Part shown: in pieces, positions 21,976-32,521 of the stretch | Numbering within the stretch: the stretch's first letter is position 1 | Layout of the letters: each line of letters begins with the position of its first letter | DNA from: Nitrospirota bacterium | GTDB taxonomy: Bacteria > Nitrospirota > Thermodesulfovibrionia > Thermodesulfovibrionales > JdFR-88 | DNA: 64,000 nucleotides | Direction of reading: 5' to 3' | NCBI GenBank assembly: GCA_021789935.1 | Contig: JAJYIR010000007.1 | Location: 11,050 to 75,049, forward strand | Made by a program: the position numbers and the translations under genes | The notes under the pieces: generated by a model | What the model was told of the DNA's origin: nothing | What the model saw: the letters and a program-made list of their open reading frames with translations, nothing else | The model's database searches: none

Positions 21976-22314
21976 TTAGTCCGGGGGGCCGTACTCGAAG
22001 ATGTCCATTTCTTCTCCCAGGTTTGGCAGGCCGGCCAGCTTCCAGGCGGTGGCCGGATCGATGAAATTCTCCGTTATGCAGTCCTTAGGCTGACCCACAT
22101 TTTTGCATACGGCGCGAATTATCGGGAAAAACTTGTAGCGGACGTAATAATCCCGCATGAACCTGAGGGCATCGAGCATTCCGGGGGCAAACTCCTTGAT
22201 CCCCTCTTTTCTGGCCAAAGCGGCGGCGACTGCCTCGTTCCAGTCCTCGTAATTTACCAGAAACCCGTCCGCATCCACACTTATTCGCTTACCATCGACA
22301 TCCAGTTCTGGCAT
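21976..22314 (-). CDS. TusE/DsrC-family protein lacking the C-terminal Cys arm
   Basis: MPELDVDGKRISVDADGFLVNYEDWNEAVAAALARKEGI...LDALRFMRDYYVRYKFFPIIRAV is DsrC/TusE-like. RBS AAGGAGGAAA precedes ATG 22314. The protein ends ...LAGLPNLGEEMDIFEYGPPD instead of ...PKPTGCV. Confidence 0.8.
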   Translation of the reverse strand: MPELDVDGKRISVDADGFLVNYEDWNEAVAAALARKEGIKEFAPGMLDALRFMRDYYVRYKFFPIIRAVCKNVGQPKDCITENFIDPATAWKLAGLPNLGEEMDIFEYGPPD

Positions 22315-22482
22315 ATTCGTTTTCCTCCTTGGCCCCCCTTTTTCACTCCTGGTCCATTTTATCACCTTTTGCCGGGAGTGGACATTATTTGCTTTTGGTG
22401 GTATCAGTTTCTTAAAAGCGGCGATTTTCCCGGGAAAACCGGATAAAAAAATCAAAAAATAAAATACCCCATTTCTGACGAT

Positions 22483-23418
22483 ATGCCCAGAAAGAAAATA
22501 GAGAAAGTGCCCGGGTCCGCATCCGCCCGGCTGCAGGGAGCGGACCGGGCCGGGTTCGGGCGGCTCCTTAATTTTATTTTCCGGGTTGCCACCGGGTTCA
22601 GGCGAAACCAGGGCCTCCTTCTTGGAGGGGCCGTTGCTTACTATACCCTGCTTTCCATTGTGCCCATGTCGATCCTGGCCCTTATAGGGTTGTCTCACAT
22701 TGTCGGGAAACAGCAGTTATACCGGACCCTCTCCACATTTCTTGATATGCTTATCCCCGGATACGCTGCCACTCTGACCGGGGAGGTGCGCGTATTTGTG
22801 GCACATGGCAAGGCCGTTAGCCTGGTGGGGCTTATCATAATGCTTTTTTTCAGTTCGGTGGCCTTTACGGTACTTGAAAACGCGATGTCCGTGATCTTCT
22901 TCCACCGCGTGGGGACCAGGCGGCGTCATTTCATGGTCTCGGCGGTCATGCCGTATGTGTACATATTTTTTCTGGGCCTCGGGGTGATAATCGTTTCTTT
23001 CATCGCCGGGGCGATACAGGCGCTGCAAAGCAGGCACCCTGTTGTAATGGCCTGGGGCCTGCGTTTAGGCGGGGTGTATGCGGTAGCGCTTTACGCCCTT
23101 GGCGTTACCGGAGAGATATTCATGCTGACCTCCGTCTATCTGGTTATGCCCGTGGGCAGGATGACGCTTCGCCATGCCGTCATCGGGGGAATAACGGCGA
23201 CGGTCCTATGGGAGGCGACCCGCCGCCTCCTTATCTGGTATTATTCAACCCTTTCCATGGTAAACCTTATATACGGTTCGTTCGCGACTGCGGTGGTGGC
23301 CCTGCTTGGCATAGAGGCGGCCTCGCTGATCCTGCTGCTGGGGGCCCAGGTGATAGCCGAGCTGGAAAGGGAAAAACACGGTACCGCGGAGGGCGCGGGC
23401 CCGGGTTTTGAGACTTGA
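22483..23418 (+). CDS. YihY/BrkB (virulence factor BrkB) family membrane protein
   Basis: GLLLGGAVAYYTLLSIVPMSILAL, multiple TM segments, and C-terminal YGSFATAVVALL. Confidence 0.8.
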   Translation: MPRKKIEKVPGSASARLQGADRAGFGRLLNFIFRVATGFRRNQGLLLGGAVAYYTLLSIVPMSILALIGLSHIVGKQQLYRTLSTFLDMLIPGYAATLTGEVRVFVAHGKAVSLVGLIIMLFFSSVAFTVLENAMSVIFFHRVGTRRRHFMVSAVMPYVYIFFLGLGVIIVSFIAGAIQALQSRHPVVMAWGLRLGGVYAVALYALGVTGEIFMLTSVYLVMPVGRMTLRHAVIGGITATVLWEATRRLLIWYYSTLSMVNLIYGSFATAVVALLGIEAASLILLLGAQVIAELEREKHGTAEGAGPGFET

Positions 23419-23459: not shown

Positions 23460-24305
23460 TTAAAACATCTTCTCCAGGAGCCCTTCGAGCTGTTCCAGGC
23501 TATAGTACTCTATGTGGAGCATGCCGCCTTTTTTGCCCTTGTGCTTCACACGCACCTTCGTGCCAAGGGATTTTGAGAGCCTGTCTTCCAGGTCCGCGAT
23601 GTTAGGGTCCGCCAGCTGGGGTTTTTTGCCAGCGTTTTTGCCTGCAAGGGAGTGGTTTTTTTCTTTTCCGCCCTTGAGAAGCCGCTCCAGTTCCCGCACG
23701 GAAAGCCCCTCGTCAGCGGCCTTGGCCGCTATCCCGGACTGTTGAGATTGAGAATCAATGCCCAGAATCACCTTGGCATGCCCCATCGAAAGCTTGCCGT
23801 CCGCAACAAGCGTTCGCACCTCCTCGGGCAGTTTGAGCAGACGAAGGTGGTTCGTGATGGTGGTGCGCTCCATTCCCAGCCTTCCCGAGAGGGCCTCGTG
23901 CGTGAGGGAGAACTCCTTCTGCAGTCTTTCAAGCGCCTCGGCCGTCTCGACCGGATTTAAGTCCTCGCGCTGCAGGTTTTCTATTAGAGCTATCTCAAGG
24001 GAGTCCTCCTTGGCAGCCTTTTTAAGTATCGCGGGCACGCGCTTTAAACCGGCCAGCCTCGCGGCGCGAAGCCTCCGCTCCCCTGCGATGAGCCTGAAGT
24101 TCCCATCACCGCTGGCGCATACGATCAGGGGCTGCAGTACCCCTTTTTCCTTTATTGAGGCCGCAAGCTCCTTCAGCCCCTCTTCGGAAAACCTCTTCCT
24201 TGGCTGGTCCGCCCATGCGGCGACCCGCTCTATCTCGATTTCAATGGCCTCCATGCCCGATTTGGGCAGGAGCGCCTCAATTCCCCGTCCGAGTGCAGTT
24301 TTCAT
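23460..24305 (-). CDS. parB: Chromosome partitioning protein ParB/Spo0J
   Basis: LGRGIEALLP, PLIV...FRLIAGERRLRAARLAG, and the helix-turn-helix FSLTHEALSGRLGMERTTITNHLRLL. ATG 24305 overlaps the parA 3' end. Confidence 0.95.
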   Translation of the reverse strand: MKTALGRGIEALLPKSGMEAIEIEIERVAAWADQPRKRFSEEGLKELAASIKEKGVLQPLIVCASGDGNFRLIAGERRLRAARLAGLKRVPAILKKAAKEDSLEIALIENLQREDLNPVETAEALERLQKEFSLTHEALSGRLGMERTTITNHLRLLKLPEEVRTLVADGKLSMGHAKVILGIDSQSQQSGIAAKAADEGLSVRELERLLKGGKEKNHSLAGKNAGKKPQLADPNIADLEDRLSKSLGTKVRVKHKGKKGGMLHIEYYSLEQLEGLLEKMF

Positions 24306-25056
24306 TTCTTGAAAAAAACTCCTTTGCAAGTGCAAGATAGCTCTGAGCCCCTTTTGACCGGGCGTCGTACATGATGGCAGGCTTGCCGTGGCTCGGGGCC
24401 TCGGCCAGGGCGATGTTACGGGGGATGACCGTTGAGTAGACCTTCCCTTTGAAATGCTCCCTCAGGTCTGCCTCAACCTGTCTTGTAAGCGTATTTCTTG
24501 GGTCGTACATGGTTAAAAGCACGCCACCCAGTTCAAGCGAGGGGTTGTAAGACCCGCGGACAAGGGACAACGTGTGGGAGAGCATCCCCAGGCCTTCCAG
24601 CGAATAATATTCGCATTGCACGGGCACAAGTACGGACTGAGCGGCCACCAGGGCATTGAGCGTGAGGAGCCCCAGTGAGGGCGGGCAGTCTATTATGATA
24701 TACCGGAACCGGTTCCTGACCGTGGAGAGGGCATCAGCAAGGATGCGTTGCGCCCCATCGCGTCCCGCAAGCTCTATCTCTGCCCCGAGCAGATCTACTG
24801 TGGAGGATACAACCCATAGCCTGTCATGGGCGGCGGGCTTTATGACCCCTTCCATGCTTTGCCTGCCGGAAAAAACGTCATAAAGGCCGGGAGGCTCTTT
24901 TTGAATCCCCAGCCCGCTGGTCGAATTCCCCTGCGGGTCGGCATCCACAAGAAGGATGTCCGCCCCGGCAAGCGCCATGGAGGCCGCCAGGTTGACGGCG
25001 GTGGTTGTCTTGCCCACTCCGCCTTTCTGGTTCACTATGGCTATGATATTATCCAT
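24277..25056 (-). CDS. parA: Chromosome partitioning ATPase ParA/Soj
   Basis: Deviant Walker A: IAIVNQKGGVGKTTTAVNLA. Confidence 0.95.
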   Translation of the reverse strand: MDNIIAIVNQKGGVGKTTTAVNLAASMALAGADILLVDADPQGNSTSGLGIQKEPPGLYDVFSGRQSMEGVIKPAAHDRLWVVSSTVDLLGAEIELAGRDGAQRILADALSTVRNRFRYIIIDCPPSLGLLTLNALVAAQSVLVPVQCEYYSLEGLGMLSHTLSLVRGSYNPSLELGGVLLTMYDPRNTLTRQVEADLREHFKGKVYSTVIPRNIALAEAPSHGKPAIMYDARSKGAQSYLALAKEFFSRNENCTRTGN

Positions 25057-25262
25057 GATTGTTTTTTTCTCCGCAGGAAACCGGTAAAGTAAAAATATCC
25101 CCCCAAAAAATCGTGGTGCGCTATTTTAGCATGGGGCTGACGAATGAAGATAGACAAACAAAGCAAATGCCGCAAAGCGGCGCGGCGCCCGTCGCTCTGC
25201 TTATTTAGTTAAAGTAAATAAAATTAACACTTTAACCGGTCTTTTTGCTAAAATGTGCCGGT

Positions 25263-25940
25263 ATGAAAAAAATTCTCATCGCCGATGGTCTTGACCCTTT
25301 CATCCGGGAAGAAAAGACCATTCTGGACCGGGATGATTTCGAGATATTCACCGCAAAATCCGGCCTGGACGCCCTTGAAGTCCACCTCGCAAATAAAATG
25401 GACCTTATTCTTGCGGACCTGAACATTCCCGATATGCCCGGGGACGAATTGGCAATGGAGATACGGAAAAAGCCTAGTTTAAAACACGTCTCCATCATAA
25501 TGATAACCAGCCTGAAGAAGGCGGACCTTGAAAGGTGCGTGACCTGCGGGGCCAATGATTACATAACGCGCCCCATAGACTCCAGGAAACTTCTGGAGAA
25601 GGTCGCATGGCTCATAGACGTGCGCGAGAGAAGGGACCTTAGGGTTTTGATAAAGGCGCGGGTGGTTGGCGCTTTCGGCCGGGAGCCTTTCTTCGGCACC
25701 ACTCACAATATAAGTGTTTCGGGCCTGCTGCTTGAGACTGAAAAGATCCTTGCCAGGGGGGATGAGATATCAAGCTCTTTTTTCATACCCGACCTGGAAA
25801 GGATTTCAGCCAGGGGCCTTGTAGTCCGCATTGCCAGGCAGGAGAGGCTGTTCCGTTACGGCATCAGGTTTTTGGACCTTTCGGAGAGGGACAAGGCAAT
25901 AATAGATGAGTACATTTCAAGGTGCGCCGCTACTTCCTGA
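25263..25940 (+). CDS. Response regulator receiver domain fused to PilZ domain
   Basis: REC: KILIADG...DLILADLNIPDMPG...K. PilZ: RERRDLR ... NISVSGLLLE (RxxxR and D/NxSxxG). Confidence 0.82.
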   Translation: MKKILIADGLDPFIREEKTILDRDDFEIFTAKSGLDALEVHLANKMDLILADLNIPDMPGDELAMEIRKKPSLKHVSIIMITSLKKADLERCVTCGANDYITRPIDSRKLLEKVAWLIDVRERRDLRVLIKARVVGAFGREPFFGTTHNISVSGLLLETEKILARGDEISSSFFIPDLERISARGLVVRIARQERLFRYGIRFLDLSERDKAIIDEYISRCAATS

Positions 25941-25955
25941 CCGGCCCTGACGGAT

Positions 25956-25971
25956 TGTTCCACGTGGAACA
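25956..25971. other. parS centromere-like site candidate
   Basis: TGTTCCACGTGGAACA is a perfect 16-bp palindrome, 20 bp when extended (ATTGTTCCACGTGGAACAAT). It is a symmetric variant of the consensus TGTTNCACGTGAAACA and lies 0.9 kb from parA. Confidence 0.7.
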
Positions 25972-25982
25972 ATGGCAATTTT

Positions 25983-26780
25983 TCACCTGTAGACTTCCCG
26001 CAAGATATCAGCCCATATATATATCGCCGATGCGGAAATGACCGCGGCAAGGAGCCATCTCAGGAATTTCGTATTGGCCTTTCTGCCTGCTTTCCCCCCG
26101 AGGTATGCCATTGGGATGGCCCCGGCCAGGAGGGCGGCCGCCAGATCGAACCGGACCTGTCCGGTCGCTATCTTCCCGGTTATCCCTGCGGTCGCCGAAA
26201 AAAGGCCTATGGCGAGCATGCTGCCCAGGGCCACCCTCAACGGGATCTTGAGGACATAAAGCATAATCGGGATTATGATGAATGCGCCGGCCTGCCCAAC
26301 CATGCCCAGCAGGAAGCCTGTTGCGGCCCCGCAAAGGATGGCAAGGGGGGAATTGAAATCCACATGTTCCCCTGAAAGGTCGTCATTTGCGTAGCTGCGG
26401 GGGATGAGCATCATTATGGCGGCGAAGAGGGCCAGAACGCCGTATATCACAAGAAGCGGCCCGTCACTCATCCGCTTTGAAAACAGGGAGCCTGCCAGCG
26501 ACGAGCAAAAGAGGGCAAGCCCCAGTGAAATAACAAGGCCTTTGCTTATAAGCCGCTCTCTCCTGTAAAAAAAAGTGGCCGTGAGCGTCGCAAAAAAACC
26601 CTGGGTCATGGTAAGGCCGGTTATGCCCTTGACCCCCAAGGGCGGGAGTCCGAAAAGGGCCGGCACATAGAGGAGGAGCGGGAACATAATGATCCCGCCC
26701 CCTATGCCCAGCATCCCTGAAAGAAAGCCCCCAAGCCCTCCTGCGGCAATCAAAAAGAGGTAAAGCGAAATGGGCGTCAT
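25983..26780 (-). CDS. TauE/SafE family anion permease
   Basis: A roughly 265-aa polytopic protein with GGxxGxxGxGGG-type repeats (GGLGGFLSGMLGIGGGIIM; GAATGFLLGMVGQAGAFIIIP). Its ATG overlaps the selD stop (ATGA). Confidence 0.8.
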   Translation of the reverse strand: MTPISLYLFLIAAGGLGGFLSGMLGIGGGIIMFPLLLYVPALFGLPPLGVKGITGLTMTQGFFATLTATFFYRRERLISKGLVISLGLALFCSSLAGSLFSKRMSDGPLLVIYGVLALFAAIMMLIPRSYANDDLSGEHVDFNSPLAILCGAATGFLLGMVGQAGAFIIIPIMLYVLKIPLRVALGSMLAIGLFSATAGITGKIATGQVRFDLAAALLAGAIPMAYLGGKAGRKANTKFLRWLLAAVISASAIYIWADILREVYR

Positions 26781-27847
26781 GCCTCTACACTTATCCTGCC
26801 TTCGGCAATAAGCGCCCCTTCGGTAACATCACCAATATGGGCCGCCAGGATGCCTTCCTCCTCAATAAGCCGCGAAAGCCTTTCCAGGTTCTCCCGGGGG
26901 ACAAATATCAGAAGTCCGCCCGATGTCTGGGCGTCGTTAAGCAGTATCTTGTGCACTTCGCTCACATTCCCCGCCCATTTTACGAAAGGTCCATAGTTTT
27001 TGAGATTGGCAATCGTTCCGCCAGGGACCACATTTTGTGCCGTAAGCTTTTCGGCGTCAGTGAAAAAAGGTACGCGTGAAGCAAAAATGTTTGCCTTCAC
27101 GCGGCTTGCCGAAAGCACCTCATTCAGGTGCCCCAGCAGCCCAAAACCCGTGACATCGGTTGCGGTGCTGACCCCCACCTGCACCATTATCTCGCCTGCC
27201 CGCCTGTTAAGCGCGGCCATAGACCTCGTGAACTCCGCTATCGCGTCCTCGCCCACGCGCCCGGCCTTGATGCCGGTAGAGATTATCCCTGTTCCTATGG
27301 GTTTCGTAAGGACTATGGCATCACCCGGACGGGCTTTCGCATTATCAAGGATATTATCCGGGTGGATGAGGCCCATGACCATAAAGCCGAATTTGGGCTC
27401 TTTGTCCTTAATGGTGTGCCCGCCGATTATGGGCACCCCCGCCTCAGCCATCTTGTCTATTCCCCCCTGGATAATCTGTTTCAGGACAGGGAAAAAATCC
27501 GGGTCTTCGGGAAACATGGCCACGTTAAGGCTCACCACGGGTCTTCCGCCCATGGCGTAGACATCCGAAAGCGAGTTTGCGGCAGCTATGGCCCCGAACA
27601 TGTAGGGGTCGTCAACTATCGGGGTAAAGAAATCAACCGTCAGCACGGCCGCCGTGTCGCCGTTAATCCTGTATACGCCGGCGTCATCCGCATTTGAAGA
27701 GCCTACAAGGACATTGGGGTCCATTATAGGCGGCAGCTGCCCCAGCACCTGGGACAGGTCCTTAGGACTGAATTTTGCCGCTCACCCGGAACAGCTTGAC
27801 ATCTCCGTGAGCTTAAAGGTTTTTTCTTTTTTCCCTTTAATATCCAT
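26777..27847 (-). CDS. selD: Selenide, water dikinase (selenophosphate synthetase) with in-frame UGA selenocysteine codon at 27782-27784
   Basis: Track ORFs 26777..27748 and 27782..28027 are in the same frame, separated only by TGA. The joined N-terminus MDIKGKKEKTFKLTEMSSCSG-U-AAKFSPKDL matches E. coli ...SHGAGCGCKISPKVL, with U at Cys17 and K at +3. Downstream: DDAGVY, VDFFTPIVDDPY, SDVYAMGG, TDVTGFGLLGH, DAQTSGGLL. RBS GGGGTGGAG. Confidence 0.88.
27730..27781 (-). other. Candidate bacterial SECIS structure immediately 3' of the selD UGA
   Basis: mRNA: UGA-[GCGGCA]-N20-[GUCCCAG-GUG-CUGGGGC]-AGC-[UGCCGC]. The lower 6-bp helix starts at the first nt after UGA. The upper 7-bp helix has a GUG loop. 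Folded by eye only. Confidence 0.4.
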
Positions 27848-27908
27848 TAGCTCCACCCCTTTCATATTTTTGAGATGATTTCCGGACGTTTTATTTGTTT
27901 TCCGCCAT

Positions 27909-28250
27909 TTATCTTTTTCTTTCTCCGGGATACTTCCCTTTTCTGGTAACAGGACAGCACGCGGGTGCGGGCAGAGGGGAATCGTACTTTTTCTCCAGTA
28001 TTTCAAGCAGGTCTGGAATGAAGGCATCCACGAGGAAGTAACATCTCAGTCGGCCGTCCACGTAGTAGTCGATTATTCCCCTGTTTCGCAGCGCCGCCAG
28101 GTGCTGGGAAACGTTGGGCTGATTGATGCCTAAAAATTCGCTAAAATCGCTCACACATTTTACGCCCTTGGAGAGCTCTCCCAGTATCTTTACCCGGGCA
28201 GGATGGGCCACGGCCTTCAAAAGCTCTACCTTGTCCATTAATTCGTCCAT
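27909..28250 (-). CDS. ArsR/SmtB family transcriptional regulator
   Basis: LKAVAHPARVKILGEL...CVSDFSEFLGINQPNVSQHLAALR (winged helix-turn-helix). The C-terminal tail has a vicinal Cys pair, PAPACCP. Confidence 0.88.
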   Translation of the reverse strand: MDELMDKVELLKAVAHPARVKILGELSKGVKCVSDFSEFLGINQPNVSQHLAALRNRGIIDYYVDGRLRCYFLVDAFIPDLLEILEKKYDSPLPAPACCPVTRKGKYPGERKR

Positions 28251-28341
28251 TCTGCCGGGCCTTCCTTTCCAGAATTATATGCAAACATTAGCATGTTGGA
28301 ATGTATATGTCAAATAAAAAAAGGAAAAGGGAAAAAGCGTT

Positions 28342-29700
28342 TCAGTCTCCTGCCCCTCTCGGAATATCGATGCCATAGGATTTTATTTTTCTGTGAAGGT
28401 TGGAACGTTCAACCCCGAGCAATTCCGCGGTCTTTGAAATGTTCCAGTGGTTTTCCGAGAGTTTTTTAGCCAGGAAATCGCGTTCGAAGGCGTCCTTTGC
28501 CTCTTTCAGCCCCTCGTATTCAAAATAATCTTCCGCCCTCAGGTCTTGATTCAGAAATAGCAGGTCTTTTTCCTCGATGCTTTCGGCGGTATTCATGATG
28601 ACCAGCCGCTCCACCGTGTTTTTGAGCTCCCTCACGTTGCCGGGCCATGAATAGGCGGAAAGCCGCTTTACCGCCTCCGGGGTTATCCGCTTGGGAGAGC
28701 GGCCGTATTCGGCCGCCAGCGCCTTGAGAAAATGGTCTATAAGGGCCGGGATGTCCTCCTTGCGGTTCCTGAGCGGAGGCACAGATATGGGGATGACATT
28801 CAGCCTGTAGTAGAGGTCCTCGCGAAAATTTCCGCTTTTAACCTCCCTGGCAAGGTCCTTGTTGGTGGCCGCGATAAGCTTTACATCCACCTTGATGTTT
28901 TTGGCCCCGCCCACATGCTGGAACTCCTGTGTTTCAATGGCCCTCAGCACCTTGGCCTGTGTGGGCAGGCTCATATCGCCAACCTCATCCAGAAACAGGC
29001 TCCCGCCATCCGCAAGCTCGAACTTGCCTTTCCTGTTTTCCTGCGCCCCGGTAAAAGAGCCTTTCTCATGCCCGAAAAGCTCGCTTTCTATAAGCTCCTG
29101 GGGGATGGCGGCGCAGTTGACCTCCACAAAGGGCATGCTCCTCCTCGCTGAAAGTTCGTGCAGCTGCCTGGCCACAAGCTCCTTGCCGGCTCCCGATTCC
29201 CCGGTGATGAGGACCTTGCCAAAACCCTTTGCGGCAAGCTCTATCTGTTCCCTCAGGCCCCTGATAGCGGGGGAGTCCCCGATGATGGCCAGCTTACCCC
29301 TTACCGACTCCTTTAAAAACCTGTTTTCCTTTTCAAGGCGTGACCTTTCAAGCCCCTGGCGCACGGTGAGAATGACCCGTTCCATTGACAGCGGCTTATC
29401 CATAAAGTCATAGGCCCCCATTTTGGTCGCCTTGACGGCGAGCTCCGTGGTGCCGTGGCCGGTAATCATAATCACCGGAAGGTCTTCCCTCTGCGCCTTT
29501 ATTCGTTTCAGGGTCTCCATGCCGTCGATACCCGGCAGCCAGATATCCAGAAGCACCAGATCGGGGGGCCTTTTTTTAACCGCCTCCACCGCCTCTTCCC
29601 CGGAGGAGGTCATGTCCACCTCGTGGCCTTCATCGGAAAGTATGTCGGCCAGGCTCTGCCTTATGTTTGCCTCATCATCCACTATGAGGACCCTGGGCAT
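28342..29700 (-). CDS. Sigma-54-dependent response regulator (NtrC/NtrX-type: REC-AAA+-Fis HTH)
   Basis: REC DLVLLDIWLPG, Walker A GESGAGKE, the GAFTGA variant GSFTGA, and a C-terminal HTH. The ATG overlaps the kinase stop (TGATG). Confidence 0.93.
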   Translation of the reverse strand: MPRVLIVDDEANIRQSLADILSDEGHEVDMTSSGEEAVEAVKKRPPDLVLLDIWLPGIDGMETLKRIKAQREDLPVIMITGHGTTELAVKATKMGAYDFMDKPLSMERVILTVRQGLERSRLEKENRFLKESVRGKLAIIGDSPAIRGLREQIELAAKGFGKVLITGESGAGKELVARQLHELSARRSMPFVEVNCAAIPQELIESELFGHEKGSFTGAQENRKGKFELADGGSLFLDEVGDMSLPTQAKVLRAIETQEFQHVGGAKNIKVDVKLIAATNKDLAREVKSGNFREDLYYRLNVIPISVPPLRNRKEDIPALIDHFLKALAAEYGRSPKRITPEAVKRLSAYSWPGNVRELKNTVERLVIMNTAESIEEKDLLFLNQDLRAEDYFEYEGLKEAKDAFERDFLAKKLSENHWNISKTAELLGVERSNLHRKIKSYGIDIPRGAGD

Positions 29701-31757
29701 CAAGCGAGTCTCCTTTCATAAAGCGGCAGCTCTATAATGAATGAGCTTCCGTGAGGGCTGTTTCTGTTTTCGCTTATGCGTATGTATCCGTTATGCTCGG
29801 AGACGATTTTGTGGACTATCGCAAGGCCAAGACCGGTCCCGTGTTTCTTCGTGGAAAAATACGGCTGAAAAAGCTTCTCCCTGACTTCCGGCGGGATCCC
29901 CGGACCATTATCGGAAATCTCCACGAACAACTTGTTTGCTTCGGCATCGGCAAATATTTTAACCGAAACAATCCCGGAATCTCCCATGGCCTCCCTGGCG
30001 TTGTCTATTATATTTACGAGCACGCGCCTGAACTGCTCCGGGTCAAGATCGACGGCCGGAAGTCCGGCGGCCGAGTCGATCATGATAATGAAGTCCTTGT
30101 ACACGCGGTAGAGGTTTTTTACCTCTTCCACCAGGCCAGGTAGGTCGGTGCGTTTTTTTTTGATATCCGGCATCCTGCCAAGCCTTGAAAACTCATCCAC
30201 AAGCAAGCGCAGGCTTTCGACCTCCGTTATTATCGTCTTTGTGGACCTCTCGAACACAACCGGGAAGTCTCCATGGCCTTCCGACCACTTCTTCATCATC
30301 CGTTCGGTGGAGAGCTTGATAGGGGTAAGCGGGTTTTTAATCTCATGGGCTATCCTTCTTGCCACTTCCTGCCAGGCAAGTACCCTCTGCGCCCGGACCA
30401 TCTCGGTTAAATCGTCAAAAACGACCAGAAGCCCCAGTTGCCGTTCCTTTGCATCCCGCAGGCCGGAGATGAAGACCCTGAGCAGGGCCTTTTCCCCCTT
30501 CTGACCGAGGCCGGCCCAGAGCTCCTGCTCCAGGAAATTTATCGTGCGCACGTTGATGCCTTTAATCAGGGCTTTAAGCTCCCCGGATTTGATATGCGAA
30601 AGGACCGCCTCGTATGGTTTCCCGATCACCTCCGCGGCTCTTATGCCAAGAATCTCGCAGGCCCTGGGGTTGATTGTAAGCACATCCCCCTCCGGTGAAA
30701 GCGAGATGACACCGGAACGGATATTGTCCAGTATGCCTTCCATGCATAGCCTTCTTCTGTCGGACTCCAGGTAAGCATTCTCAAGCGACTTCTTGCCTTC
30801 CTTAAGCTCAGCCACCATCCGGTTGAAGGACTCTATCAAAAGCCCCATCTCATCGGAACCTCTGGGGGGCACCCTCAAGTCCAGGTTTCCGCGTGCCACC
30901 TCCCCGGTGGCCGCGGCCAGGTCTCTGACCGGGCCGGTGATCCCCCTGGCCAGCCTGAGCGATGCCAGCAGAGCGGTAAGCATGATGGTAAGAGCGATAA
31001 AGCCAAGCACCAGATAGAAATTAGTCCGGATGGGCGTGCGCCACCCCTCAAGCGTTATGAGGCTTTCGTTTGCCTGTTTTATGTTTTCTATGTAAGAGGT
31101 GAGCTTGGGCGGCAAGGTGGTGCTTGCCACGATTACCCCGCCCGAAGGCCGTGGCACGATCCCCCTTACCATGTCCCCGCCGGCAGCCGACAGCACCTCC
31201 GCCCCTTTTTCCCCCCTGAAGGCCGACTGCATGGCGGGGGTGGCGTCCGAAGGCAGGCCCGGCACGTAAGTTATCCGGTAGGGGCCGATTGCCCTCAAAC
31301 TTCCGCTTTGAAGGGCGCTGGCGGCGGCATCAAGGGCCCCGTCCTTTTCCTGCTGGTAAATGGAGCGTGCCATGGCAAGAGAGGAGACAAGGGGGTCCCT
31401 GAACTGGGTATTGAATATCTTGTCCATATAATTGGTCGCAAGGCCGCTTGCCACCGCGTAGACCATTATGGTGGGGGTTATGCTCAGGAACGTGAACAGA
31501 AGCAGTATCTTCGCCCTGAACTTAAAGCCTATGACCCTTCTTTTAACTCCCAGGTAAAGTTCTATGAACCCCTTGCCTACCAGGTAGATAAGCGCAAGAA
31601 GCACAAAAAGGTTCAGATTGAAGATAAGCAGGTAAAGCAGGGTCTCCGGAAACTCGCCAACCTTTAGGAATCTTGCCTCGAAAGGCAAAAAAATCCCCAG
31701 AAGCACAAGGGCCGCCGCAAGGACATAGAGCACCTTTAATTTCATGCCCTTTTTCAT
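29700..31757 (-). CDS. NtrY-like sensor histidine kinase (TM-HAMP-PAS-HisKA-HATPase)
   Basis: H-box IAHEIKNPLTPI, N/G boxes NAREAM...DNGPGI...GTGLGLAIV, and N-terminal TM helices. ATG 31757 was chosen as the start; TTG 31775 is an alternative. Confidence 0.9.
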   Translation of the reverse strand: MKKGMKLKVLYVLAAALVLLGIFLPFEARFLKVGEFPETLLYLLIFNLNLFVLLALIYLVGKGFIELYLGVKRRVIGFKFRAKILLLFTFLSITPTIMVYAVASGLATNYMDKIFNTQFRDPLVSSLAMARSIYQQEKDGALDAAASALQSGSLRAIGPYRITYVPGLPSDATPAMQSAFRGEKGAEVLSAAGGDMVRGIVPRPSGGVIVASTTLPPKLTSYIENIKQANESLITLEGWRTPIRTNFYLVLGFIALTIMLTALLASLRLARGITGPVRDLAAATGEVARGNLDLRVPPRGSDEMGLLIESFNRMVAELKEGKKSLENAYLESDRRRLCMEGILDNIRSGVISLSPEGDVLTINPRACEILGIRAAEVIGKPYEAVLSHIKSGELKALIKGINVRTINFLEQELWAGLGQKGEKALLRVFISGLRDAKERQLGLLVVFDDLTEMVRAQRVLAWQEVARRIAHEIKNPLTPIKLSTERMMKKWSEGHGDFPVVFERSTKTIITEVESLRLLVDEFSRLGRMPDIKKKRTDLPGLVEEVKNLYRVYKDFIIMIDSAAGLPAVDLDPEQFRRVLVNIIDNAREAMGDSGIVSVKIFADAEANKLFVEISDNGPGIPPEVREKLFQPYFSTKKHGTGLGLAIVHKIVSEHNGYIRISENRNSPHGSSFIIELPLYERRLA

Positions 31758-31758
31758 T

Positions 31759-32337
31759 TCAGGGTTTGTCTCCAAGGGTGATCATGGGGGAATCCTCATA
31801 CACGGAAAAATCTTTGTCCCTTATGAAAAAAAACATCTGGGCAAGCAGCGGAGGCAGGTTTCTCAACTTGGATTCTGCCGTGACCCTTATAAAATATCTC
31901 CCCTTTGTCAGTTCATTGAGGTTGGACAGTTTTACGCCGCCCAGGACCAGAGAATTTTTGATAAGGTCGTCACAGCTTCCGTATCTTGTTTCCTCGTCCG
32001 CCCCTCTTTCCAGCGTGGTCATCATGTACTCGCCTTTCACGCTGTCGCAGCTTAGGTATCTTTCTATCCTTACCCCCTTGATGTACTCGTCCGGCCAGCT
32101 TGACCAATGCCTGAAGAGATCGACATAGAAGACGAGGTCCTTCTGTATGCCCGCCTGAAGGTCCTTTATAACGGAGGGGTCCATGACCAGCCTCGCGGAG
32201 ACAAATACGCTGTCCCCCTTCATGGAGACCGAAAGGGAATTTATCTGGGCTGCCCGTGCATCAAGCGGCAGGAAAAGAAAAAGGACAATTGCCAGGGACA
32301 AAAGCAAAATGGCCTTTTTAAAAAAGAAAAAGCGCAT
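31759..32337 (-). CDS. DUF4390-like periplasmic protein preceding NtrY/NtrX
   Basis: Signal peptide MRFFFFKKAILLLSLAIVLFLFLPLDARA. The gene order DUF4390-ntrY-ntrX is the arrangement I recall from other bacteria. The family call is from memory of context, not from a motif. Confidence 0.55.
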   Translation of the reverse strand: MRFFFFKKAILLLSLAIVLFLFLPLDARAAQINSLSVSMKGDSVFVSARLVMDPSVIKDLQAGIQKDLVFYVDLFRHWSSWPDEYIKGVRIERYLSCDSVKGEYMMTTLERGADEETRYGSCDDLIKNSLVLGGVKLSNLNELTKGRYFIRVTAESKLRNLPPLLAQMFFFIRDKDFSVYEDSPMITLGDKP

Positions 32338-32521
32338 TTTCAGATATAAAAGCCTTTCAAAACGAACTCTGGACAATTTTTTGATTATACCATGTAATTC
32401 ATGGGTTTTTTGATTCGCCGGGCGGGGCCGATGATGCGGGCCCCGCCGCTCCCGCCTCCTTCAGCAGGCAGACATGATCTATATCATAGGAATGCCTCGC
32501 GGGGTCAGGTAAAGTGATGTC

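Follow-up and report, generated by a model that had tools for sequence, protein, structure and literature searches.

A selD-linked clade of TauE-family permeases and the arsR-selD-tauE operon of a Nitrospirota bacterium: a candidate system for selenium acquisition

Prokaryotes still have no identified transporter that is specific for selenium and of high affinity, as reviews of 2022 and 2026 state (PMC9312934, PMC13188914), and selenium transport by the membrane protein YedE is a prediction only (PMC5322559). Permeases of the TauE (TSUP) family move sulfite, sulfonates or sulfate, and they do so in both directions (PMC5840216, PMC5823870). On the regulatory side, the LysR_Se/HrsM family has already been tied to selA, selB and selD (PMC5322559), and this LysR-type family was the only regulator which our literature search found described as a bacterial selenium-responsive switch. 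Here we analyzed a stretch of 64,000 nucleotides from a Nitrospirota bacterium (contig JAJYIR010000007.1, positions 11,050 to 75,049), referred to as the window. By its protein homologues the organism belongs in or near the Thermodesulfovibrionales of this phylum. It carries the three genes arsR, selD and tauE, coding for a putative thiol-based repressor, selenophosphate synthetase and a TauE-family permease. Sequence comparison places this permease in a clade linked to selD, a previously undescribed candidate for a dedicated selenium transporter.

Neither TauE nor ArsR is named in a comparative-genomics study of selenium genes (PMC5322559) or in the two reviews (PMC9312934, PMC13188914). Our literature search likewise found no published link of TauE, DUF81, TSUP or "sulfite exporter", or of an ArsR, with selD or selenium, and no curated model describing a selD-TauE link was found.

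The three genes are located on the minus strand. An earlier note on this DNA, made from the sequence alone, had described them as same-strand neighbours with a 61-nt gap and an ATGA overlap, and all these features are present. The first gene, arsR (28250-27909), encodes an ArsR/SmtB winged-helix repressor of 113 aa, here named ArsR-CC. The 61-nt spacer (27908-27848) contains GGGGTGGAG, a strong Shine-Dalgarno sequence for selD, and leads to selD (27847-26777), with 356 codons for the selenocysteine (Sec) form of selenide, water dikinase (selenophosphate synthetase). The ATG of the third gene, tauE (26780-25983), overlaps the selD stop codon TGA as GCATGACG. It encodes a TauE/SafE/TSUP permease of 265 aa, and this type of permease is here named TauE-Se.

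The permease of the window matched the family profile PF01925 with 135.3 bits (cut-off 32.6) over profile positions 1-236 of 237. Two conserved Gly-rich motifs were found, G-I-G-G-G (residues 25-29) and G-x-x-G-Q-x-G (residues 159-165). An AlphaFold model was all-helical, with helices over residues 4-264 (predicted local distance difference test score 79.5, predicted template modelling (TM) score 0.77). Among the NCBIfam models none covered the protein, the sole match being a weak one to the C-terminus of MamO. A sequence search of the PDB with the TauE profile gave no homologue, and when the model was compared with PDB structures by Foldseek, no match reached E < 0.01, BacA being the best (TM score 0.36).

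The neighbourhood was followed in a census that runs from TauE outward: TauE homologues were collected first and selD was scored beside them. An alignment of 25 close permease homologues was used to scan one genome per GTDB species, which gave at least 80 loci (here numbered with the prefix L). Each of these was then searched by tblastn with the SelD, ArsR and TauE proteins of the window. The counts of the genome scan are lower bounds and many loci are contigs of metagenome-assembled genomes (MAGs). selD was found directly beside the TauE gene and on the same strand in 42 of the 80 loci listed, and also in two of three contigs that had been retrieved by the exact match of a protein. In a neighbour-joining tree of 81 full-length TauE proteins, one clade of 57 contained all 45 selD-adjacent copies (the window counted). 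Outside the clade, none of the 24 TauE had selD nearby among the matches listed (45/57 vs 0/24, Fisher p = 5.4e-12, a statistic that ignores kinship). Since many loci are related Desulfobulbales or Thermodesulfovibrionales MAGs, the adjacency counts are not phylogenetically independent.

The selD-linked clade spans at least seven phyla, and the flanking genes differ between lineages. Its members come from Nitrospirota (Thermodesulfovibrionales), Desulfobacterota (Desulfobulbales and others), Geobacterales (Geomesophilobacter sediminis), Thiogranum (Gammaproteobacteria), Gemmatimonadota (Gemmatimonadales), Bacillota (Desulfosporosinus paludis), Acidobacteriota (Thermoanaerobaculia) and Myxococcota (Polyangiaceae), among others. 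tauE is mostly located directly downstream of selD. A few loci have it upstream; L017 and L023 show this inverted order, with both genes still adjacent. Between the stop codon of selD and the start of tauE the median distance is 5 nt, with at most 20 nt in 32 of 43 loci and mostly no more than 10 nt. The compact arsR-selD-tauE trio is also present in L003, L007, L008, L010 and L098. The gene-neighbourhood census which the earlier note had proposed thus gave a clear positive for selD and TauE, a distinct TauE clade standing beside mostly Sec-type selD. As the adjacency recurs across at least seven phyla, it is not unique to this genome, and the gene order argues strongly for a selD-TauE link.

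The clade can also be recognized by residues. Its signature comprises P40, T57, Q60, A117, Q163, R182, S187, K203, T206 and Q208. Q163 lies in the second Gly-rich motif (G-M-V-G-Q-G-G), where ordinary TauE proteins have Ile, and no Cys is conserved throughout the clade. By these sequence features the window protein is a true TauE/SafE member within a separate, unannotated clade linked to selD.

Twelve of the 57 clade members had no adjacent selD, three of them at contig ends (L025, L040, L044). Among these exceptions, L016 and L018 (Rokubacteria) carry a tandem pair of in-clade TauE genes beside a LysR gene, and those of L002 and L004 adjoin DsrE/DsrH/Pyr_redox_2 genes that are found inside the selD operon of L019 and L028.

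Some loci carry further genes at the pair. In Geomesophilobacter sediminis a NifS-like class-V aminotransferase gene (L051:2639-3901) is located directly upstream of selD-tauE. Two MAGs carry thiI after tauE-selD (L017:6899-8065, L023:6863-8029), with a selenium-type LysR gene divergent upstream. Between a DsrE-like gene and selD, the loci L005 (L005:2814-3596), L087, L105, L124, L125, L144 and L147 carry another TauE paralogue of the clade, which shares about 42% identity with the TauE of the window. The order there is arsR-dsrE-tauE2-selD-tauE1, so that two different permeases flank selD.

The SelD protein of the window scored 362.3 bits with TIGR00476 (cut-off 125) and 327.9 bits with NF002098 (cut-off 299), and both the AIRS (PF00586) and AIRS_C (PF02769) domains were found. 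Its N-terminal Gly-rich loop SCSG-U-AAKF fits the catalytic motif G-[UC]-x-x-K, with the in-frame UGA (27784-27782; Sec22, motif G-U-A-A-K) at the catalytic position. Among the partner selD genes of the TauE clade, 44 could be read at the catalytic codon; 40 of them likewise carry UGA there, and the other four, all from Thiogranum, encode Cys. Hairpins resembling a selenocysteine insertion sequence (SECIS) are located 3' of the UGA (27738-27768), the main stem spanning 27756-27738 with GGU in the apical loop. The minimum free energy of this fold was -32 kcal/mol (z = -2.2), and a consensus fold of 15 orthologues showed compensatory changes in five of 12 pairs. An Rfam scan of the whole window at gathering thresholds gave no match, curated bacterial SECIS and riboswitch models included. 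A tRNA search of the window found none, tRNA-Sec included, and a Pfam scan of 43 open reading frames (ORFs) of the window revealed no further selenium gene (selA, selB, yedE, yedF).

The regulator at the selD-tauE pair varies by lineage. ArsR-CC is found in Thermodesulfovibrionales-like lineages, and other loci carry an ArsR-rhodanese fusion or a divergent LysR. A divergent LysR gene was located immediately upstream of selD-tauE in nine pair loci. The best NCBIfam match for nine of ten divergent LysR proteins tested was NF040786, the selenium metabolism-associated LysR. Three of them, L052 (269.9 bits), L022 (262.6 bits) and L017 (255.8 bits), were above its cut-off of 250 and the others below it, including the LysR of L018 with 204.7 bits; that of L016 had no NCBIfam match at the 1e-40 threshold. 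Fusions of ArsR and rhodanese (229-236 aa, rhodanese loop CRGPYC) were found directly upstream of selD in one acidobacterial and one deltaproteobacterial MAG (L045:3239-3928, L047:2968-3678), and these are a possible alternative chalcogen-sensing regulator. This exchange of unrelated regulators at the same two-gene cassette argues that selD-tauE is a selenium unit whichever regulator precedes it.

In the window the regulator matched HTH_5 (PF01022) with 55.4 bits (cut-off 22) and NF033788 with 69.1 bits (cut-off 55), and its relatives in the PDB include CadC, SmtB, NmtR and BigR. A metagenome scan with this protein gave 80 loci with 65-74% identity. The vicinal Cys pair that the earlier note had seen in the C-terminal tail is present (LPAPACCPVTRKGKYPGERKR). 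As a description of the thiols, however, the pair is incomplete, because four cysteines (C32, C70, C98 and C99) were invariant in 88 of 88 ArsR-CC orthologues. C32 is located in helix alpha3, C70 in the wing and C98-C99 in the tail, whose conserved sequence is P-x-P-x-C-C-P-x-T-x-x-G-x-Y-P-G-x-R. ArsR-CC fails the curated models for BigR, TsoR, CmtR and classical ArsR.

When aligned, C32 matches the initial Cys of the alpha3 CVC site of CadC and ArsR. An equivalence of C32 with Cys42 of BigR was rejected on the basis of this alignment, and a BigR-like Cys-pair model was therefore dropped.

A single promoter of the sigma70 type with a single operator was found upstream of arsR. It consists of the -35 hexamer TTGACA (28308-28313) and, after a 17-nt spacer, the -10 hexamer TAATGT (28290-28285). 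It was missed by a generic promoter scan, whose over-strict rule for the -10 hexamer excludes TAATGT. The putative operator (28277-28304) is a 12-4-12 inverted repeat, ACATTCCAACAT-GCTA-ATGTTTGCATAT, which begins 3 nt downstream of the -35 hexamer and runs across the -10 hexamer. Of the ArsR-CC orthologues, 83 had a long enough upstream region, and most of these show the same layout of TTGACA, palindrome and a TAATAT-like -10 hexamer. Their operator consensus is ATATKCAAAYAT-N4-ATRTTTGMATAT, again a 12-4-12 palindrome running into the -10 hexamer. It was matched exactly in 10 related loci and with at most four mismatches in 59 loci, and in all seven genome loci that carry the operator, as well as at the sites inspected, it was located just upstream of arsR-CC. 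Within the window the consensus had a single match with two mismatches (vs 0.00 expected from 100 shuffles) and no second match elsewhere. We take the palindrome to be the predicted binding site of an ArsR-family dimer, which would make the operon autorepressed.

Second operator copies with three to four mismatches were found inside the operon in two related loci (L132:4321-4348, L137:8441-8468). They precede the gene of an MMPL transporter, which suggests separate control of that gene.

Between arsR and selD (27908-27848) consensus matching and a terminator scan revealed neither an operator nor a terminator-like site, and from arsR to the end of tauE the only terminator-like sites were ordinary intragenic background matches. 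A perfect 20-nt palindrome, ATTGTTCCACGTGGAACAAT (25954-25973, both strands), is located between tauE and a convergent gene for a response regulator-PilZ fusion. On the plus strand it has a T-run and the terminator scan classed it as terminator-like; as a minus-strand hairpin it lies 10 nt past the tauE stop and has no U-run. It is probably a terminator hairpin common to both genes. Given the one promoter with its operator and a gap free of operators and terminators, arsR-selD-tauE is most likely a single autorepressed transcript of three genes that would end at this palindrome. The CACGTG core of the palindrome makes a protein-binding site conceivable as well.

The genes headed by ArsR-CC in other loci are more diverse. 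In 54 of the 64 informative metagenome loci (those with 600 nt or more of sequence after arsR-CC) a selD or a selenoprotein gene was found downstream, selD being the one nearby in 17. Four architectures were distinguished. Architecture A comprises genes for DsrE-like, TusC-like and DsrH/TusB-like proteins, an SQR-like Pyr_redox_2 flavoprotein, DrsE_2 and an MMPL/HAE3 transporter. Its first DsrE gene carries an in-frame TGA (U-x-G-C) in 33 of 33 loci, and the predicted products look like a Sec-containing TusBCD-like relay system. Architecture B comprises DsrE108, a rhodanese/DsbD protein with two in-frame TGA codons (FY-U-DGLT-U) and a VTT/DedA membrane protein. The two halves of the rhodanese/DsbD protein matched TsoB (NF045694) with 688 and 106 bits. 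DsrE108, a second TauE, SelD and TauE form architecture C, and architecture D is SelD and TauE as in the window. Both selenoprotein families, DsrE-Sec and TsoB, appear in the review of 2026 (PMC13188914).

Examples of architecture A are L084, L090, L111 and L143 (L143:5382-5612 and downstream), among others. TsoB-like genes are present, among others, in L126 (L126:1291-3027), L151 (L151:5950-7695) and L104 (L104:3540-5276), and in L104 and L127 a convergent selD is located just downstream of the TsoB-like operon.

A tblastn search of the window found no DsrE, DsrH, SQR-like, TsoB-like, MMPL, VTT, DnaJ-like or methyltransferase accessory genes, so that the window holds only a minimal version of these loci. 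Considering the 54 loci with selD or a selenoprotein gene and the 17 with selD, ArsR-CC is, as predicted from gene content, a regulator of selenium-dependent genes and not of selD alone. The earlier note had read the trio as one candidate module for selenium sensing, activation and transport. This reading is supported in part: the linkage of selD and TauE is strong and the regulator is indeed linked to selenium, but ArsR-CC is confined to Thermodesulfovibrionales-like lineages and its targets are broader than selD.

On balance we lean towards reading arsR-selD-tauE as an autoregulated operon for the acquisition and activation of selenium, whose permease would import a selenium anion and hand it to SelD. 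ArsR-CC would repress the operon by occupying 28277-28304. Its invariant thiols (C32, C70, C98-C99) may react with a selenium species or with a reactive chalcogen species close to it, a selenotrisulfide bridge being one possible product, and C32 together with the C98-C99 tail could make up a three-thiolate or selenotrisulfide site. Luebke et al. are said to have found in 2013 that the dithiol repressor CstR forms a selenotrisulfide with selenite. Such a reaction would release the DNA, and the use of selenium would be confined to times at which selenium is available. The selenium LysR or the ArsR-rhodanese fusion would do the work of ArsR-CC at the selD-tauE cassette of other lineages.

The likeliest substrates of the permease would be hydrogen selenite, as it is isostructural with sulfite, a known substrate type of the TauE family, or hydroselenide, since the organisms live in sulfidic habitats. 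The direction is most probably inward: import is favoured because the only constant partner is a selenide-consuming enzyme and because the coupling is translational. Tight translational coupling would keep the permease and SelD in a fixed proportion, so that toxic selenide could be captured as selenophosphate on arrival.

A wider claim can be made from the same comparisons. It holds that the selD-linked clade is a dedicated prokaryotic uptake permease for selenium, non-homologous to YedE and used by anaerobes from Nitrospirota to Bacillota, and at the same time that ArsR-CC is a direct selenium sensor. This sensor would capture selenium as a selenotrisulfide by its four invariant cysteines and so switch on a whole regulon of selD, the permease, DsrE-Sec/TusBC-like relay proteins and TsoB-like selenoproteins. 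We put this joint claim forward tentatively and consider it rather doubtful as a whole.

Several points weigh against selenium import under the control of ArsR-CC. Transporters controlled by ArsR are classically substrate-induced exporters, and for importers of micronutrients scarcity of the substrate is a more usual inducing signal than its presence. In the TauE census, nine clade members with adequate flanks have no adjacent selD. As to the regulator, with selD near only 17 of the 64 informative loci ArsR-CC is not selD-specific, and two ArsR-selD loci (L085, L097) lack TauE within 2-4 kb downstream. The commonest targets of ArsR-CC have folds of sulfur trafficking (DsrE/TusBCD-like, SQR-like and rhodanese/DsbD proteins), and instead of selenium a persulfide or sulfide could thus be the ligand. 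Finally, the characterised TauE and SafE are exporters (PMC5823870).

This last point leads to an alternative which we judge unlikely, in which the permease, co-expressed with SelD, is an exporter or safety valve for surplus selenide, selenite or a reactive by-product at times of abundant selenium, and ArsR a classical substrate-induced derepressor as in the ArsR-ArsB pair. In its favour, besides the export activity of TauE and SafE, is the BigR operon, in which a thiol sensor of the ArsR type is encoded together with a sulfite exporter related to TauE (PMC5823870), and derepression by the ligand is the norm among ArsR/SmtB proteins. MMPL/RND-type transporters also occur in ArsR-CC operons, where the second operators of L132 and L137 precede them. 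However, the tight linkage to selD across phyla whatever the regulator, the translational coupling and the partners of the LysR_Sec_metab or NifS-like type are better explained if the permease supplies SelD than if it serves disposal. In most of the sampled habitats selenium is moreover a trace nutrient, and importers exist within TSUP too, namely TsaS and CysZ of C. glutamicum (PMC5840216).

The sulfur-trafficking targets raise the further alternative of a primarily sulfur response. ArsR-CC would sense reactive sulfur like BigR or SqrR and TauE would move sulfite or thiosulfate; selD would be co-regulated only because the regulon's Sec-containing enzymes of sulfur relay need it for their synthesis. 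The prevalence of DsrE/TusC/TusB-like proteins, SQR-like flavoproteins and rhodanese/DsbD among the targets is in agreement with this, the hosts are sulfur-cycling anaerobes, and the BigR model NF040642 was the second-best NCBIfam match of the window ArsR. Yet that match reached only 44.6 bits against a cut-off of 155, and C32 aligns with the alpha3 CVC position and not with a BigR cysteine. The TauE clade tracks selD across phyla and not the sulfur-relay genes, most selD-tauE pair loci having no DsrE, SQR or rhodanese gene, and an ordinary TauE beside selD was found in 0 of 24 cases. The sulfur-relay genes of the regulon are themselves selenoprotein genes. We therefore regard a primarily sulfur response as improbable.

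The Cys pair could also suggest an arsenite or antimonite sensor whose neighbours are incidentally co-transcribed. Three-thiolate sites with a vicinal C-terminal Cys pair are known for As(III) in ArsR proteins; in Acidithiobacillus ArsR the site with the vicinal pair is made up of C95, C96 and C102. The position of C32 at the alpha3 metalloid site would fit such a role. Against it, no ars genes (arsB/acr3, arsC, arsM) were present in the conserved clusters downstream of ArsR-CC in the 80 loci, nor adjoining in the window. The As(III) site of the R773 type, ELCVCDL, is degenerate in ArsR-CC (VKCVSDF, only C32 kept), and the ArsR model PRK10141 gave 28 bits (cut-off 97). In the absence of ars genes and with this motif degenerate, a metalloid sensor is very improbable.

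That the adjacency is chance or an accident of inheritance within lineages is effectively refuted, because, despite the kinship and non-independence of many of the loci, the pair is kept with differing flanks in at least seven phyla, stays adjacent when inverted, is specific to one clade and has mostly very short gaps.

The remaining surroundings of the operon are of other kinds. Just downstream, a parA-parB (soj/spo0J-like) pair is located at 23460-25056 on the minus strand, recognized from the translations (KGGVGKTT Walker A, ParB-type GERR), and a replication origin may be close by. The response regulator-PilZ fusion gene (25245-25940, plus strand) lies beside it. Directly upstream of arsR and on the same strand, the region 28342-32376 codes for an NtrC-type response regulator dependent on sigma54, an apparent sensor histidine kinase (691-aa ORF, judged from its translation) and a DUF4390 protein. 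The stop of the NtrC-type regulator is just 91 nt away from the arsR start, so that some read-through into the selenium operon is possible. A 240-aa ORF (21976-22698, minus strand) has a DsrC-like domain in its C-terminal part only (residues 134-225, 60 bits) and a long N-terminal extension. Since its 5' part overlaps the start of a BrkB/YihY-like ORF on the opposite strand (22483-23418), its true start may be further downstream.

For the specific acquisition of selenium by bacteria, the selD-locked permease clade offers a concrete, clonable candidate transporter. Its signature, G-x-x-G-Q-G-G together with R182, K203 and Q208, would separate selenium-linked TauE proteins from generic "sulfite exporter" annotations. 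ArsR-CC with its well-defined putative operator is a candidate for a bacterial selenium-responsive switch and possibly a biosensor part.

Compared with the known TauE, SafE and TsaS permeases (PF01925, TC 2.A.102), the window protein is likewise a helical membrane protein of about 260 aa with two Gly-rich motifs, but its clade is tied to selD and not to taurine, sulfoacetate or sulfite metabolism. The YedE/YedF system (TIGR04112, TIGR03527), a proposed selenium transporter with its redox partner, resembles the locus in placing a membrane protein of a sulfur-transporter superfamily beside selD, its selenium role being based on comparative genomics as well (PMC5322559). However, YedE has the unrelated YeeE/YedE fold with ten transmembrane segments and a conserved Cys, whereas the window protein is a TauE. 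No YeeE/YedE (PF04143) and no SirA-DsrE fusion was found among the 43 window ORFs scanned; the immediate neighbours of selD are ArsR, TauE, the response regulator-PilZ fusion and the NtrC-type activator.

The BigR operon of Xylella and Agrobacterium also has a thiol-based ArsR-type repressor acting over its own -10 region and ends in a TauE-family permease (PMC5823870). Its enzyme is the sulfur dioxygenase Blh, where SelD is found here, and its permease exports sulfite, whereas selenium import is the reading favoured for the window. BigR has an alpha2 and C-terminal Cys pair, and the cysteines of ArsR-CC in alpha3, wing and tail are at other positions. In the alignment to the structure 3pqj the sole visible BigR Cys (LVCTL) and C32 of the query each face a residue other than Cys.

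LysR_Se/HrsM (NF040786) occupies an equivalent position, divergent and immediately upstream of selD-tauE. It belongs to another family, with a LysR effector domain where ArsR-CC would have a thiol switch, and is not present in the window. From this equivalence of position ArsR-CC is probably its functional counterpart for the selenium utilisation genes. The "three selenoprotein operon" Tso is similar in that an ArsR-type regulator, TsoR, heads selenoprotein genes, and a TsoB-like protein with U-x4-U is present in architecture B (PMC13188914). Unlike Tso, the window carries selD-tauE and no Tso genes, and a literature search on TsoR gave nothing useful. As the TsoR model NF045707 gave 36.2 bits with the window ArsR (cut-off 115), the analogy is one of role only. 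In layout, the nearest described system is thus the BigR operon, and in role the nearest are LysR_Se/HrsM and TsoR.

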